The notes under the pieces were generated by a model, which searched no databases, was not told the origin of the DNA, and was given only the letters and a program-made list of their open reading frames with translations. A stretch of DNA of 63,995 nt, the filler included, from an uncultured bacterium (GTDB taxonomy: Bacteria > DAOPZR01): NCBI GenBank assembly GCA_964637655.1. It is 5 parts of 5 records of this genome, joined end to end, with 100 filler letters (N's around TTAATTAATTAA, not from the genome) between each part and the next. Parts side by side here need not be neighbours in the genome. Positions count along the whole stretch, not along the records: positions 26,323 to 39,330 come from CAZWUZ010000089.1; 4 more parts are not named here. One strand, 5' to 3'. How positions within the stretch are numbered: position 1 is the stretch's first letter; every line of letters begins with the position of its first letter. Below, one piece after another: positions 2,461-33,245 of the stretch. Position numbers and translations under genes: made by a program.

Positions 2461-4161
2461 TCATTCGTTGTGCGGTATCTCGTAGACACTGCCGCCGATG
2501 AACTCGCGGATGGGCGACGTCGGCGGGATGACCGACAGGTCGGGGAGCGGCGCCACCGTCTCCATCAGCGCGTGCAGGCGCAGGCCGCGCACGTAGGGGT
2601 CGAGCCGCCCCTGCTCGCGCAGCGACTCGACGAACTCGCGCGACGGGAGCATCGACCCCAGCGCGGTCTTGAGCGCCGCCAGTTCGTACGGCAGCCCCGA
2701 GTTGATCACCGCCTCGGTGGTGAAGATGTACGGGATGATGTGCTTGAGTTCCCCCTTGCGCACGTAGGGCCAGTGCGGCAGGGTGTGCTCGGGGTTGTAG
2801 CCGCGATGCGAGTAGTCGCGCAGCATGCGCTTGAGCATGCGGATGTCCGACCAGCGCGTCGGTTCGCCGGTGATGTGACGGATGACGTTCATCGACTCGA
2901 TATAGATGCGGAACTTCTTCTTGACCGGGACCGCCGCGGTCAGCTGCGAGAAGAGGCCGTGCAGGCAGTCGATGAGCAGGATCTCGTCATTCGCCAGCGC
3001 GAAGGGAATGGTCTTGTCGCGCTTCCCCAGCTTGAAGTTGTAATGCGGCATGTCGATCGGTTTGCCCTGCATGAGCAGGTCGAGATGCTCGTTGAGCAGC
3101 GGGATGTCGATCGCCTCGGGCATCTCGAAATCATAGTCGCCGAATTCGTCCTTCGGCTGCTGGTCGAGGTTCTTGAAGTAGTTGTCGATATTGAGGGTTT
3201 TGAGCTTCAGCCCCTCCTTTTCCAGTTCCTGCCCGACGATGACCGTGGTCGTCGTCTTGTTGCTGCAGGAAGGGCCGGCCACGATGATGACGCGCAGTTC
3301 GTGCTTGCGCTCGAGGATGCGCGCCGCCGCCGCCAGCACGCCGTCGCGGTAGCGCCGCTCCGAGGCGTCGATCAGGTCGCCGAGGTTCTTGCCGCGCCGC
3401 CCGAGCACCCAGTCATTGAGCGAAAAGATGCTGTCGCACTCGTGCGCGATGTTCCAGGCGATGCACTGCCCGATGACCGCGCGGTGGATGCCGTCGTTGG
3501 TGAACTGCGCCGGGGAGATGTCGCCGCTGCGGATCTTGATCTTCCCCTCGCGGAAGAGCATGTAGGCCTCGGCAATCTCGATCTCGCCGATGTCGCGCAG
3601 CAGCGTCTCCACGGTGTCCTGCACGTCCTCGCGCCCCGGGTACATCAGCTCGTTGCCCGGCTGCGCGGCGACCAGTTCCTCCGTCTTGCGCGCGAGGAAG
3701 ACGCTGATGTCGGTGGCCAGGTCGGGGGTGTAGGCCGGCTGCTGCCCGTCGGTGTAGCGCGTGTCGATGGTGAAGGTGCGGAACTCGTCGGCGACGAAGT
3801 CCGCCACCGTTGCCGGCGATGTTTTCGCCGTCTTGCCCGCGAGGAACAGCTCGCGCAGGGCGAAGGCGAGCCGCGTCGTCACGCGCGCGTGGTCGAGCCG
3901 CCGCAGCCGCTCCTCGGGCTTGTAGCTGCAGTACATCGTCACGAATTTGTGCTTGAGCGCCTTGGGATCGTAGAAGTCGCGGTAGAGTTTCTCGGCGACC
4001 AGGTCGGCGTACTTGCGCGCGCGCAGTTCGGGCGCGCGGCGGTCGGAACCGTCGACGTCGATGATGGTGTTGGTGATCGAGCGGACGATCTTCTCGCGCT
4101 CGAACTCCACGACCTTGCCCTGCTTGTTGATGATCCTGGTGACGGTGTTCGGGATGCCCAT
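2461..4161 (-). CDS. ATP-cone + uridine/nucleoside kinase family protein
   Basis: N-terminal INKQGKVVEFEREKI and EDVQDTVE..L...AEAYMLFR (ATP cone); AGPSCSNKTT, DNYFK, YDFEMPEAID, RMLKRMLRD (uridine kinase). GGAGG RBS before ATG 4161. Confidence 0.85.
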   Translation of the reverse strand: MGIPNTVTRIINKQGKVVEFEREKIVRSITNTIIDVDGSDRRAPELRARKYADLVAEKLYRDFYDPKALKHKFVTMYCSYKPEERLRRLDHARVTTRLAFALRELFLAGKTAKTSPATVADFVADEFRTFTIDTRYTDGQQPAYTPDLATDISVFLARKTEELVAAQPGNELMYPGREDVQDTVETLLRDIGEIEIAEAYMLFREGKIKIRSGDISPAQFTNDGIHRAVIGQCIAWNIAHECDSIFSLNDWVLGRRGKNLGDLIDASERRYRDGVLAAAARILERKHELRVIIVAGPSCSNKTTTTVIVGQELEKEGLKLKTLNIDNYFKNLDQQPKDEFGDYDFEMPEAIDIPLLNEHLDLLMQGKPIDMPHYNFKLGKRDKTIPFALANDEILLIDCLHGLFSQLTAAVPVKKKFRIYIESMNVIRHITGEPTRWSDIRMLKRMLRDYSHRGYNPEHTLPHWPYVRKGELKHIIPYIFTTEAVINSGLPYELAALKTALGSMLPSREFVESLREQGRLDPYVRGLRLHALMETVAPLPDLSVIPPTSPIREFIGGSVYEIPHNE

Positions 4162-5307: not shown

Positions 5308-5384
5308 GCGCCCGTAGCTCAGCTGGATAGAGTACCTGGCTTCGAACCAGGGGGTCGGGGGTTCGAATCCCTCCGGGCGCACCA
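5308..5384 (+). tRNA. tRNA-Arg, anticodon TCG
   Basis: Acceptor stem GCGCCCG/CGGGCGC plus ACCA; anticodon arm CCTGG-CT TCG AA-CCAGG; GTTCGAATC T-loop; TGnTATAAA promoter just upstream. Confidence 0.97.
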
Positions 5385-26593: not shown

Positions 26594-27571
26594 ATGGGTC
26601 ATCTCTGGCAGCCCGGTGCGGTCGTGGCGGTGTGCAGCAGCGACCGTACCGGCATCCCGAAGACCGCCGTGGCGACGGCGGAACTGCGCGCGGCGCACGG
26701 TATCGTCGGCGATGCGCACGCGGGGAGCGGGCGGCAGGTATCGCTGCTCGACGCGGCGGCCGTGCGCGCGTTCGCCGCGGCCAACCCGTCTCTCGACCTG
26801 CCCCCGGGCAGCTTCGGGGAGAATCTGCTCATCGACGGCATCGACTGGGCAACACTGGCGGTCGGAACACGCCTGCAGATCGGCAGCGCGCGGCTGGAAA
26901 TCACGCAGCGCGGCAAGGAGTGCCACGGCGACGGGTGCGCCATCCGCCAGGCGGCGGGTGACTGCATCATGCCGGTGCAGGGACTGTTCGCGCGCGTGCT
27001 GACTGACGGCAGCGTGCATGCCGGCGACCCCGTGTGGGTGCCGGTGCACAACTTTGTGCTCGGTCTGCTCACCGTGAGCGACCGCGGCAGCCGCGGTGAG
27101 ACGACGGACGCGAGCGGCGACCTGCTGGCGGAGCTGCTTACCCCGCTCGGTGAGGTGGCGGCGCGCGCGCTGCTCCCGGACGAACCGGAGCGCATCAGCG
27201 CGCTGCTGCGCGAGTGGTGCGATGCCCCGTCCGCGCCGGCGCTCATCGTGACGACCGGCGGCACCGGGCTGTCGCCGCGCGACACCACTCCCGAGGCGAC
27301 GCGCGCGGTGCTCGAGCGCGAGGCGCCCGGCCTGATGGAGTACGCGCGGGCGCAGGGGGGACGCGACAACCCGGCGGCGTATCTCAGCCGCGGCGTGGCG
27401 GGTACGCGCGGCCGCACGCTTATCCTCAACCTGCCGGGGAGCGTGCGCGCGGTGCGTGAGTCGCTCGCCGCGCTCATGCCGCTGCTGCCGCACGCGCTGC
27501 AGACGCTGCAGGGGAGCGTGCATGACTGCGGGCGGGCGCACGGCGGCTGCGGAGGGTGCCACCATGGCTGA
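26594..27571 (+). CDS. MOSC domain + MogA/MoaB molybdopterin-binding fusion
   Basis: GIVGDAHAG, RQVSLL, FGEN, GKECH; TVSD, TTGGTG.SPRD.TPEAT, NLPGS. Confidence 0.92.
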   Translation: MGHLWQPGAVVAVCSSDRTGIPKTAVATAELRAAHGIVGDAHAGSGRQVSLLDAAAVRAFAAANPSLDLPPGSFGENLLIDGIDWATLAVGTRLQIGSARLEITQRGKECHGDGCAIRQAAGDCIMPVQGLFARVLTDGSVHAGDPVWVPVHNFVLGLLTVSDRGSRGETTDASGDLLAELLTPLGEVAARALLPDEPERISALLREWCDAPSAPALIVTTGGTGLSPRDTTPEATRAVLEREAPGLMEYARAQGGRDNPAAYLSRGVAGTRGRTLILNLPGSVRAVRESLAALMPLLPHALQTLQGSVHDCGRAHGGCGGCHHG

Positions 27572-27786
27572 ACACCGGCGGCGCATTTCGCTCTGGGAAC
27601 GCCTGGTCGAGGGAAAATCGGGGCATCGCGTCAGGCGCATCAACAACCCGGGCGAAATTGCCCTGCGCCTGTTCATCATCGTCGCCATCCTGCTGGTCAT
27701 CGTCTATGTGGTCGTGCTGGGCGTCCGTACCTTCGGCGGCAATGGCGACGACGGCACGCTGGCGCCGCTGCCCCCCGAGGTGGCCG

Positions 27787-27797
<11 letters not shown>
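27564..27797 (+). CDS. Small single-TM hypothetical protein
   Basis: GGAGG RBS; hydrophobic helix; overlaps both neighbouring genes. Confidence 0.6.
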
Positions 27798-29807
<2,010 letters not shown>

Positions 29808-29811
<4 letters not shown>

Positions 29812-32453: not shown

Positions 32454-32496
32454 CCTTTTGCCATTGCTGGGGACAATGACCATGGCTAAGAAAGTA

Positions 32497-32526
32497 TTGA
32501 CAAAAAGCCGATTAGTGTGGTATAAG
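32497..32526 (+). promoter_or_regulatory. Strong sigma70-type promoter
   Basis: TTGACA (32497-32502), 18-nt spacer, extended -10 TGnTATAAG (hexamer 32521-32526). Confidence 0.8.
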
Positions 32527-32529
32527 TAC

Positions 32530-32604
32530 GGTAGCAATACCACCCCTTGTAGCTTCGGCGAACGGGCGCGGAGCCGTTTCGCAAGAAACGGCTCCTGCTG
32601 TTTT
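32530..32604 (+). ncRNA. Candidate structured RNA/leader: three tetraloop hairpins, the last terminator-like
   Basis: GGTA-GCAA-TACC; CCC-TTGTA-GC-TTCG-GC-GAAC-GGG; GGAGCCGTTTC-GCAA-GAAACGGCTCC followed by TGCTGTTTT. Confidence 0.7.
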
Positions 32605-32615
32605 CAGGTCATCCC

Positions 32616-33245
32616 ATGCTAAAAACCAATGTGTATATAGATGCGTTCAATCTCTATTACGGCATCCTGCAAGGCAGCAAATGTAAATGGCTGGATGTGC
32701 GAAAACTGGCGGCGATATTGCTGCCCAAACATCAAATTGTCAAAATCAAATATTTCACTGCCCTGGTCAATGCGCGTGAAAATGATCCGGACCAACCCAT
32801 GCGGCAGCAGATGTATTTGCGCGCACTCGGTACACTTCCGGAAGTCGAGATATACTATGGCCATTTTTTGACCAACTCTGTGGCAATGCCGCTGGTTGAA
32901 CCGCTCGTAGATGGCACGAAGTATGTCAAAGTCATTAAAACCGAAGAGAAGGGTTCGGATGTCAATCTTGCCAGTCAGTTATTGCGGGACGGATTCATGA
33001 ACAGTTATGAGTGTGCAGTTTTGGTGACAGGCGATTCCGATCTGCTGATGCCAATGAAAATTGTCCGGGAAGAGTTGCACAAGCCGGTGGGGGTGGTCAA
33101 CCCGCGCACCAAACCGTCCCGGATAATGCAGCGCCATGCGACTTTCTACAAGCACATACGCCATTCGGCATTGTTGGCGGCGCAATTTCCAGATGAATTA
33201 CACGATGCGCAGGGTATATTCCACAAACCAGAGAAGTGGAGTTAA
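32616..33245 (+). CDS. NYN domain (LabA/DUF88, PIN-like) ribonuclease
   Basis: VYIDAFNLYY, EEKGSDVNLA and VTGDSDL acidic motifs all intact. Confidence 0.92.
   Translation: MLKTNVYIDAFNLYYGILQGSKCKWLDVRKLAAILLPKHQIVKIKYFTALVNARENDPDQPMRQQMYLRALGTLPEVEIYYGHFLTNSVAMPLVEPLVDGTKYVKVIKTEEKGSDVNLASQLLRDGFMNSYECAVLVTGDSDLLMPMKIVREELHKPVGVVNPRTKPSRIMQRHATFYKHIRHSALLAAQFPDELHDAQGIFHKPEKWS

Follow-up and report, generated by a model that had tools for sequence, protein, structure and literature searches.

A conserved two-hairpin RNA accompanies NYN ribonuclease-like genes and is a candidate antidote or partner of their products

In the genome of an uncultured bacterium (lineage DAOPZR01, GenBank assembly GCA_964637655.1), a gene for an NYN ribonuclease-like protein stands between a res-like gene and a DNA methyltransferase gene (mod), and the short stretch in front of it holds a promoter-like site and a series of hairpins that ends in a terminator. 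The question that this locus raises is whether these hairpins simply end transcription of res, or whether they belong to an RNA that has business with the NYN protein. The window, by which we mean the whole stretch of DNA analysed (63,995 nucleotides (nt) of joined genome parts, the locus lying in the part from CAZWUZ010000089.1), had been the subject of an earlier note, which proposed a promoter, a three-hairpin RNA and an NYN ribonuclease nested in a type III restriction-modification (RM) system as a candidate RNA-antitoxin module. Our comparisons indicate that two of the three hairpins constitute a conserved RNA, that this RNA accompanies NYN genes and no particular RM system, and that it is probably an antidote or partner of the NYN ribonuclease.

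The promoter described in the earlier note, TTGACA-18-TG-TATAAG, is present as claimed, with TTGACA at 32497-32502, TG at 32518-19 and TATAAG at 32521-26. It was not listed by the motif scan, whose rule wants a T at the end of the second hexamer where the window has a G; the nearest relative, locus L017, has an identical TATAAG. Hairpin 3 was also described correctly, as an 11-bp stem closed by a GCAA loop (32570-95) and followed by UGCUGUUUU up to 32604, and a terminator scan agrees with it. From the position of the -10 element, transcription would start at ~32533 (~7 nt downstream), which falls within hairpin 1, and the transcript of the RNA gene is likely to extend from there to 32604. Hairpin 1 can be read in the sequence, and we considered it as a part of the RNA and rejected it: no counterpart is present upstream of the NYN genes of relatives, and it lies outside the match to R1, the covariance model that we use for this RNA. 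Because hairpin 1 lacks a counterpart and is cut by the predicted start, the RNA comprises two hairpins rather than the three first proposed, namely hairpin 2 (P1) and hairpin 3 (P2), both of which are borne out by covariation.

R1 scores the window RNA, itself one of the 61 seed rows of the model, at 56.9 bits (E 6e-15), which is the sole match at E<0.1 in the 64-kb window; there is one copy, and the RNA is not repeated in tandem at this locus. An Rfam scan, proposed in the earlier note, returned no family for positions 32454-32615 in Rfam 15, even at E<=10. Folding of the single sequence is modest relative to shuffled sequences (z = -2.1, with 7/200 as good, and z = -2.2, with 2/200), and the real support for the predicted structure is comparative, hairpins 2 and 3 being conserved with covariation.

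We inspected the 150 nt 5′ of the NYN gene across 132 loci and aligned 61 distinct examples with MAFFT. The recurrent layout begins with a TTGACA-type promoter and a short leader, often starting AUC, and continues with P1, in which a C-rich 5′ strand and a stem lead into a loop, mostly UUCG, and the 3′ strand has GGG. In most relatives one linker base separates it from P2, with a GC clamp and a GAGGCC-type stem, a stable loop and a complementary strand that carries one bulged base, followed by GC and a U run, and the NYN start lies a few bases on. The RNAalifold consensus of the 61 sequences consists of two hairpins, including the 2-bp GC clamp and the bulge, and the C-G pair of the clamp is invariant (61/61 rows). 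When this alignment, unfitted to the model, is read with the 20-pair structure, 91.6% of cells are paired against 76.1% in shuffles (0/500 of which reach the observed value) and 34-52% in a control with slid partners; cells changed on both sides number 202, against 59 in the shuffles. The model-fitted alignment (100 matches, 95 distinct), which is biased towards its own structure, has both-side changes in 19/20 pairs, that is, at all 9 pairs of P1 and at 10/11 pairs of P2 (97.7% paired). Many of the cells are G-U, and read from the opposite strand these would turn into A-C mismatches; the fold accordingly belongs to the strand read from the promoter.

The loops vary across the family (UUCG, CUCG, UUUG, GNRA and others), and letter conservation is highest at the bases of both helices and in the clamp rather than in the loops; the helix junction, at which the 5′ end comes together with the 3′ end, would be the likely recognition surface. 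The GUA/GAA internal loop pointed out in the earlier note exists in the window, but it does not characterize the family: the loop-E-type signature (AGUA/GAA; UGUA/GAAC in the window) was found in ~13/95 distinct RNAs from two protein clades, as counted by a regular expression and after removal by eye of L061 and L098 as mislabelled, and the other RNAs have a plain helix at this place. As judged from the alignments, hairpins 2 and 3 together represent a conserved RNA of ~63 nt and a well-supported family of ~95 distinct sequences that is absent from Rfam 15. The RNA also usually has its own promoter. At the equivalent place, a sigma-70-like site (>=9/12) is present in 84/113 distinct RNA upstream regions, its -10 element ending 3-22 nt (mostly 6-9) before model position 1, compared with 10/580 random 70-mers drawn from the same loci. 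Such a site precedes 9/10 RNAs in the divergent arrangement described below and 2/7 in the convergent one, the latter being mostly actinobacterial.

How tightly is the RNA bound to NYN genes? The 132 loci had been gathered by similarity of the NYN protein alone (16 species genomes, the best 80 of at least 576 metagenome loci, and 36 viral contigs), and an R1 match (E<=0.01) lies within ~115 nt of the NYN gene at 116 of them. Seed rows came from 59 of these positive loci, and the other 57 are new detections. The earlier note had predicted a conserved structured RNA tied to NYN, and had set beforehand the lack of conserved structure upstream of NYN homologues as grounds for abandoning the proposal; the conserved structure is present. 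At 97 of the 116 positive loci the RNA is upstream on the NYN strand, in the order promoter, RNA, terminator, RNase that had been described for the window. These RNAs, present in two copies at two of the loci, end 3-51 nt, mostly <20, before the NYN start. The remaining RNAs are upstream and divergent (10 loci), downstream and convergent (8) or downstream on the same strand (1). Seven changes of arrangement are needed on a quick maximum-likelihood (ML) tree of 113 NYN proteins, and well-supported ML branches alone call for at least one origin each of the divergent and convergent forms. The linkage is thus independent of orientation.

It is also exclusive. All of the 6 R1 matches in five whole genomes (2.2-10.1 Mb), which are genomes of related loci, adjoin an NYN gene, and an RNA-first search through 151 genomes of one phylum gave 8 matches at E<=0.001, of which the 4 strong ones (E<=9e-8) all adjoin NYN. 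With its strong matches all beside NYN, the RNA is neither a repeat scattered through genomes nor a terminator of general use. It appears instead to be an independent gene partnered with NYN, beyond a mere leader or a res terminator.

At a few loci the NYN gene itself is defective. The NYN frame ends early at L014 and L016, the match at L016 covering the N-terminal third of NYN only, and no start codon can be placed at L015. Despite these frame defects, the RNA is intact at L014 and L015 (60.7-62.9 bits). L014 shares one Verrucomicrobia assembly with another of the loci, L008.

The identification of the protein partner as an NYN protein holds. In the window, its ATG stands 11 nt past the U run with just a weak AGG ahead of it as a Shine-Dalgarno sequence, its stop codon occupies 33243-45, and the ATG of mod directly abuts that stop, all of which agrees with the earlier description of an NYN gene with catalytic Asp residues. 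The protein matches PF01936 over residues 3-175 (37.6 bits, cut-off 24.2) and the PADLOC model PDLC04163 (HEC-09) over profile positions 3-203 of 203 (E 4.4e-43), HEC-09 being its sole match in PADLOC at E<=0.01. Across 113 homologues there is no variation at D9, N12, E110, E111, K112, G113, D115, N117, D140 or D142, and these include the four acidic residues of the metal-binding type (D9, D115, D140 and D142). An AlphaFold2 model (predicted local distance difference test score, pLDDT, 94.7) has as its nearest PDB folds in Foldseek 2qip (2.3e-8) and the MARF1 NYN structures 5yaa/6fdl (1e-6 to 6e-6). No relationship with ToxN, CptN or TenpN emerged, the protein matching only NYN in Pfam and nothing in NCBIfam (E<=0.001). 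HEC-09 is described, in the available part of its report, as a 'Hma-embedded candidate', an NYN/MARF1-like putative RNase that occurs within other defence systems (10.1101/2024.01.29.577857).

We were interested in whether the RM genes on either side belong to the same unit, as the earlier note supposed. This link did not hold: by tblastn, homologues of this res or mod are next to NYN at 0/132 loci, with two weak methylase matches elsewhere and no res match. Neighbouring genes are diverse, the nearest open reading frames (ORFs) comprising 108 upstream in 92 Pfam families and 105 downstream in 78, and the commonest family accounting for <=3 upstream and <=5 downstream ORFs; these tallies are approximate, the ORFs having been picked by a crude longest-ORF rule. 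Defence genes are a minority among them (HsdR-type domains 4-5, PglZ 3, TIR 1). NYN sits inside this RM-like pair through one insertion, matching the 'embedded' habit of HEC-09, and not through a conserved partnership.

NYN homologues are widespread on plasmids, with tblastn matches on 453 of them (Klebsiella 207, Xanthomonas 61, Escherichia 48, and others), some measuring 3.4-4.6 kb and holding few other annotated genes. On a 3461-bp E. coli plasmid (L133), NYN is one of three annotated genes and is preceded by two diverged two-hairpin units, whose R1 scores are 25.0 and 8.8 bits. A mobilizable E. coli plasmid of 4600 bp (L134, NZ_CP145651.1), of which NYN is the main non-mobilization cargo, has an array at 1081-1225 in which a 33-nt unit is repeated 3.5 times (88% matches), followed by a terminator and then NYN. 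By eye, the unit is a P1-type hairpin of a variant with a GUGC loop, joined to an A-rich linker. This type of array with its gene occurs on 17 small mobilizable plasmids, and in 10/5426 complete E. coli genomes, where it is always plasmid-borne. At L094 (2836-2953) and L115 (2862-2989), the complete two-hairpin RNA is present twice in tandem 5′ of NYN, the second hairpin of the first copy at L115 lacking a U run. The 'single non-repeated' RNA of the earlier note is therefore right for the window, with its one copy, and wrong for the family, in which some relatives have tandem copies. Tandem Repeats Finder, run on the 400 nt 5′ of NYN at loci with a called start and >=120 nt upstream, reported only the L134 array and an unrelated repeat at L132; the two-copy RNAs are too diverged for this program and rest on R1 matches.

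Other RNAs may fill the same place in more distant relatives. Three plasmid loci from Klebsiella and Xanthomonas (L136, ~380-600; L139, ~480-580; L140, ~490-590) encode NYN homologues of 26-35% identity, and by eye each has a promoter, a different structured RNA with a AUUAAGUU-type motif, a terminator and NYN in that order, the RNA unit being doubled at L136. These different RNA classes may mean that RNA partners are common in the NYN superfamily. Some NYN genes of this type are annotated '6-hydroxy-3-succinoylpyridine 3-monooxygenase HspA', which looks like a mis-annotation. The RNA of the R1 family is carried by prophages as well: in the Mycobacterium abscessus prophage prophiGD43A-1 (L155), NYN is gene 6 (2501-3187), flanked by the integrase and immunity repressor genes, and a copy of the RNA convergent with it scores 54.4 bits. 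The annotation of gene 6 is hypothetical protein only. On this distribution, the RNA and NYN appear to form a module of two genes, complete in itself, that travels among genomes, plasmids and prophages.

Table 1. Features at the NYN locus of the window and in its surroundings (positions in the window)
Feature	Position or length	Strand	Basis and remarks
uvrB	27556-29811		ORF of 751 aa from GTG; first of the genes listed
res-like helicase-nuclease, 881 aa	29808-32453	+	ResIII E 3.7e-6, residues 123-327; context only, not a conserved partner
res–NYN gap	162 nt		holds the promoter-like site and the hairpins
Promoter-like site	32497-32526	+	TTGACA, 18-nt spacer with TG, TATAAG; read from the sequence
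Hairpin 1	32530-32541	+	4 bp, GCAA loop; outside the conserved RNA and the R1 match
Conserved NYN-associated small RNA	32540-32605	+	R1 covariance-model match, all 63 positions
P1 (hairpin 2)	32545-32566	+	UUCG loop, CC/GG base, UGUA/GAAC internal loop; covariance-model alignment
P2 (hairpin 3) with intrinsic terminator	32568-32604	+	GC clamp, bulged U32596, 11-bp stem, GCAA loop, UGUUUU; terminator scan
NYN ribonuclease-like gene, 209 aa	32616-33245	+	PF01936 E 3.9e-9; PADLOC HEC-09
N6/N4 DNA methyltransferase (mod), 695 aa	33246-35333	+	PF01555 E 2.2e-43

The surrounding genes (Table 1) fit the label 'type III RM' in part. Its Mod methyltransferase is present, with MTase_II as the best PADLOC model (2.1e-104) and MTase_III as the second (5e-56), but the res-like protein matches no PADLOC model. 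In the latter, a TnsA-like endonuclease match at residues 781-845 is weak and below cut-off (E 0.005), and the NCBIfam restriction enzyme BPTD_3080 reaches 49 bits where the cut-off is 800. The usual gene order of type III RM systems is mod then res, and the order in the window is res then mod. We consider the pair RM-like, its type being uncertain. The res-like ORF starts 4 nt inside the end of uvrB (29808-29811) and may be co-transcribed with it; the uvrB ORF as listed is probably over-extended at its 5′ end. On the 3′ side, the methyltransferase gene is followed by nadC and then birA. Elsewhere in the window, a tRNA gene at 5308-5381 is the sole Rfam match at gathering score.

What, then, might the RNA do? 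We interpret the RNA and NYN as a type III-like module of an RNA antitoxin and an NYN toxin, with binding and toxicity as predictions, and we put the chance that this is correct at about even. The RNA gene has a promoter and a terminator to itself and would produce a small RNA of ~65-70 nt, P2 doubling as the terminator. In the tandem layout, NYN mRNA would arise only by read-through of this terminator, so that the RNA would be in large excess over NYN. By way of the conserved junction of its two helices, the RNA would bind NYN and hold the nuclease inactive; if the supply of RNA failed, because a plasmid was lost or a phage shut transcription off, NYN would be released to cut RNA. The RNA would work as a product and not by its position, because the linkage is kept when it lies on the other strand or downstream. 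The tandem arrays, the carriage on small plasmids and prophages, and the precedent of AbiF and its RNA RCd22, discussed below, fit the antitoxin interpretation. A broader proposal, to which we lean slightly less than half-way, is that HEC-09-type NYN proteins and their RNAs make up a new and widespread type III-like toxin-antitoxin (TA) or abortive-infection family, the first with a PIN-like/NYN toxin, in which distant NYN clades would have RNAs of their own, making an RNA partner general to the NYN superfamily. In the same proposal, with which it shares this estimate, the two-hairpin antitoxin RNA would be made without processing when single-copy and would be arrayed in enterobacterial plasmids.

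A number of observations weigh against the toxin-antitoxin interpretation. Five sequencing runs from two studies contain the stretch or a part of it, all of them DNA runs, and no RNA run was among those listed. The R1 match is absent at 16/132 loci. Contig ends truncate 4 of these, and 7 have by eye a related variant with a GUGC-type loop, such variants at L120, L121 and L127 giving below-threshold R1 matches (E 0.2-0.87); the conserved RNA was seen neither at the remote homologues L130-L132 (31-33% identity) nor at L011, which has different hairpins, nor at L016, a gene fragment. Raw counts such as these are swollen by near-identical loci. The other 4 matches of the 151-genome search are weak (E 6e-4 to 9e-4) and have no NYN nearby; they are probably due to chance. 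With nearly all of its bases paired and stable tetraloops closing its hairpins, the RNA may be long-lived, whereas antitoxins of a shut-off model are expected to be labile. Compared with classical type III systems, the RNA is mostly single-copy and the enzyme has a metal-dependent PIN-like fold. Finally, HEC-09 was cloned with ~150 bp of upstream DNA, which may or may not have included the RNA, behind a T5/lac promoter and did not protect from any phage that was tried, and toxicity is reported for HEC-03 and HEC-04 only, as far as the available text of that report goes (10.1101/2024.01.29.577857).

The partnership itself does not fix the sign of the effect. Linkage, orientation and specificity would look the same if RNA and NYN formed a ribonucleoprotein in which the RNA was an indispensable cofactor or a sensor subunit, holding NYN poised or switching the nuclease on when a phage factor attacks or displaces the RNA. 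Conserved letters at the helix junction rather than in the loops would suit a fixed protein-binding platform, and a very stable RNA would suit a structural subunit. We nevertheless regard this alternative as unlikely, in both its general form and this mechanistic version: the RNA has no variable, guide-like segment, its variation being compensatory only, and a terminator before NYN together with tandem arrays would yield the excess of RNA that is typical of antidotes and not of stoichiometric subunits. It is distinctly improbable, in our estimation, that the RNA acts only in cis as a leader or attenuator that keeps NYN expression low, perhaps through binding or cleavage of that leader by NYN, as in autoregulated RNase genes. 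The predominance of RNAs upstream on the NYN strand (97/116) and the want of a separate NYN promoter in the tandem layout are what such a leader predicts, and it would serve mod here too, which is likewise behind the terminator; lying directly 3′ of the NYN stop, mod would be reached only by transcripts that cross it. A cis leader, however, cannot work where the RNA is on the other strand or downstream, and 19/116 loci fall outside the upstream tandem layout, 9/10 divergent RNAs having their own promoter and the rearrangements having occurred several times independently. Moreover, attenuation does not need the sequence of a terminator stem to be kept from phylum to phylum, and no conserved alternative pairing of the anti-terminator kind was found. 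A candidate anti-terminator in the window, between the 3′ strand of P1 and the 5′ strand of P2, was rejected, this pairing being impossible in L004.

Two further explanations carry far less weight. That the RNA is a type I-like antisense RNA, blocking translation by pairing with the start of NYN mRNA, seems to us very improbable. Several loci do have G-rich ribosome-binding regions whose bases could pair with the RNA's C-rich 5′ end, and transcripts could partly overlap at divergent and convergent loci, but the predicted duplex with the start region is no better than with the rest of the NYN ORF: the start window ranks in the best tenth at 10/100 loci, with a median rank of 0.64. Furthermore, the RNA is nearly devoid of single-stranded bases, and the window has that weak AGG alone before the ATG. 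Least credible of all, and almost negligible, is that hairpin 3 is simply the res terminator and that the promoter and hairpin 2 arose by chance. The single-sequence fold, which is just ~2 standard deviations above shuffles, and the -10 element without its final T are what one would cite for it; against it, both hairpins are found with NYN in unrelated contexts that lack a res homologue, and they keep their conserved letters and show compensatory changes there.

If the toxin-antitoxin interpretation of the RNA and NYN is correct, the consequences reach beyond this locus. In the paper texts searched, nothing connects NYN proteins to an RNA antitoxin or to an RNA motif, and 'NYN' does not occur in the main texts of the RNA-motif discovery papers among them. 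An RNA-antidote module with both a new toxin fold and a new RNA would then be at hand, and it would add a very simple RNA architecture to the RNA-antitoxin systems. HEC-09 is a listed defence candidate that, according to the accessible part of its report, came out negative in the one phage test made of it as a system of a single protein (10.1101/2024.01.29.577857). Were it a two-part module of RNA and protein, it would need to be tested differently, and the earlier negative might need to be read again. A function would also be gained for the gene that a group of very small enterobacterial plasmids carries as its chief cargo, and the E. coli plasmid version makes the idea of a module directly testable in a laboratory strain.

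Among known systems, autoregulatory leaders of RNase genes such as rne and rnc act only in cis. The RNA described here resembles them in being a structured RNA that precedes an RNase gene at most loci, and differs in keeping its linkage with NYN in four arrangements. With HEC-09 as modelled in PADLOC the likeness is closer: the window NYN is a full-length member and lies between the res-like gene and mod, although the host system here is not Hma. The main text on HEC-09, in its available part, treats it as a single protein gene, contains neither 'non-coding' nor 'intergenic' and mentions no RNA partner (10.1101/2024.01.29.577857).

Type III TA systems comprise the families ToxIN, CptIN and TenpIN, in which an RNA binds the toxin, and the antitoxins known are, in the part of the source available, pseudoknots processed from repeats by Kid-like toxins (PMC13682666). 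The window module and its relatives share with them the order of promoter, non-coding RNA, intrinsic terminator and endoribonuclease-type gene, a layout found at 97/116 loci, as well as a predicted RNA excess by design, carriage on plasmids and prophages and, in some relatives, tandem RNA repeats (L094, L115 and L133, and L134 with 3.5 x 33 nt). Unlike in those systems, the candidate toxin has an NYN/PIN-like fold and not a ToxN-type one, the RNA is mostly one copy of two plain hairpins instead of a pseudoknot, and it may be on either strand or downstream of NYN. No abiF RNA motif is present in the window, since Rfam matches nothing there apart from the tRNA, and AbiF itself belongs to a different protein family (Abi_2/AbiD/F) and has a different RNA. 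Even so, it offers the best functional analogy, on the available part of the evidence, as a toxic defence protein outside the classical families with an adjacent structured non-coding RNA: AbiF of C. difficile is reported, in the accessible text, to be neutralised by the neighbouring RCd22 both in cis, where RCd22 lowers transcription, and in trans, where it binds AbiF directly (10.1101/2025.04.15.648962).

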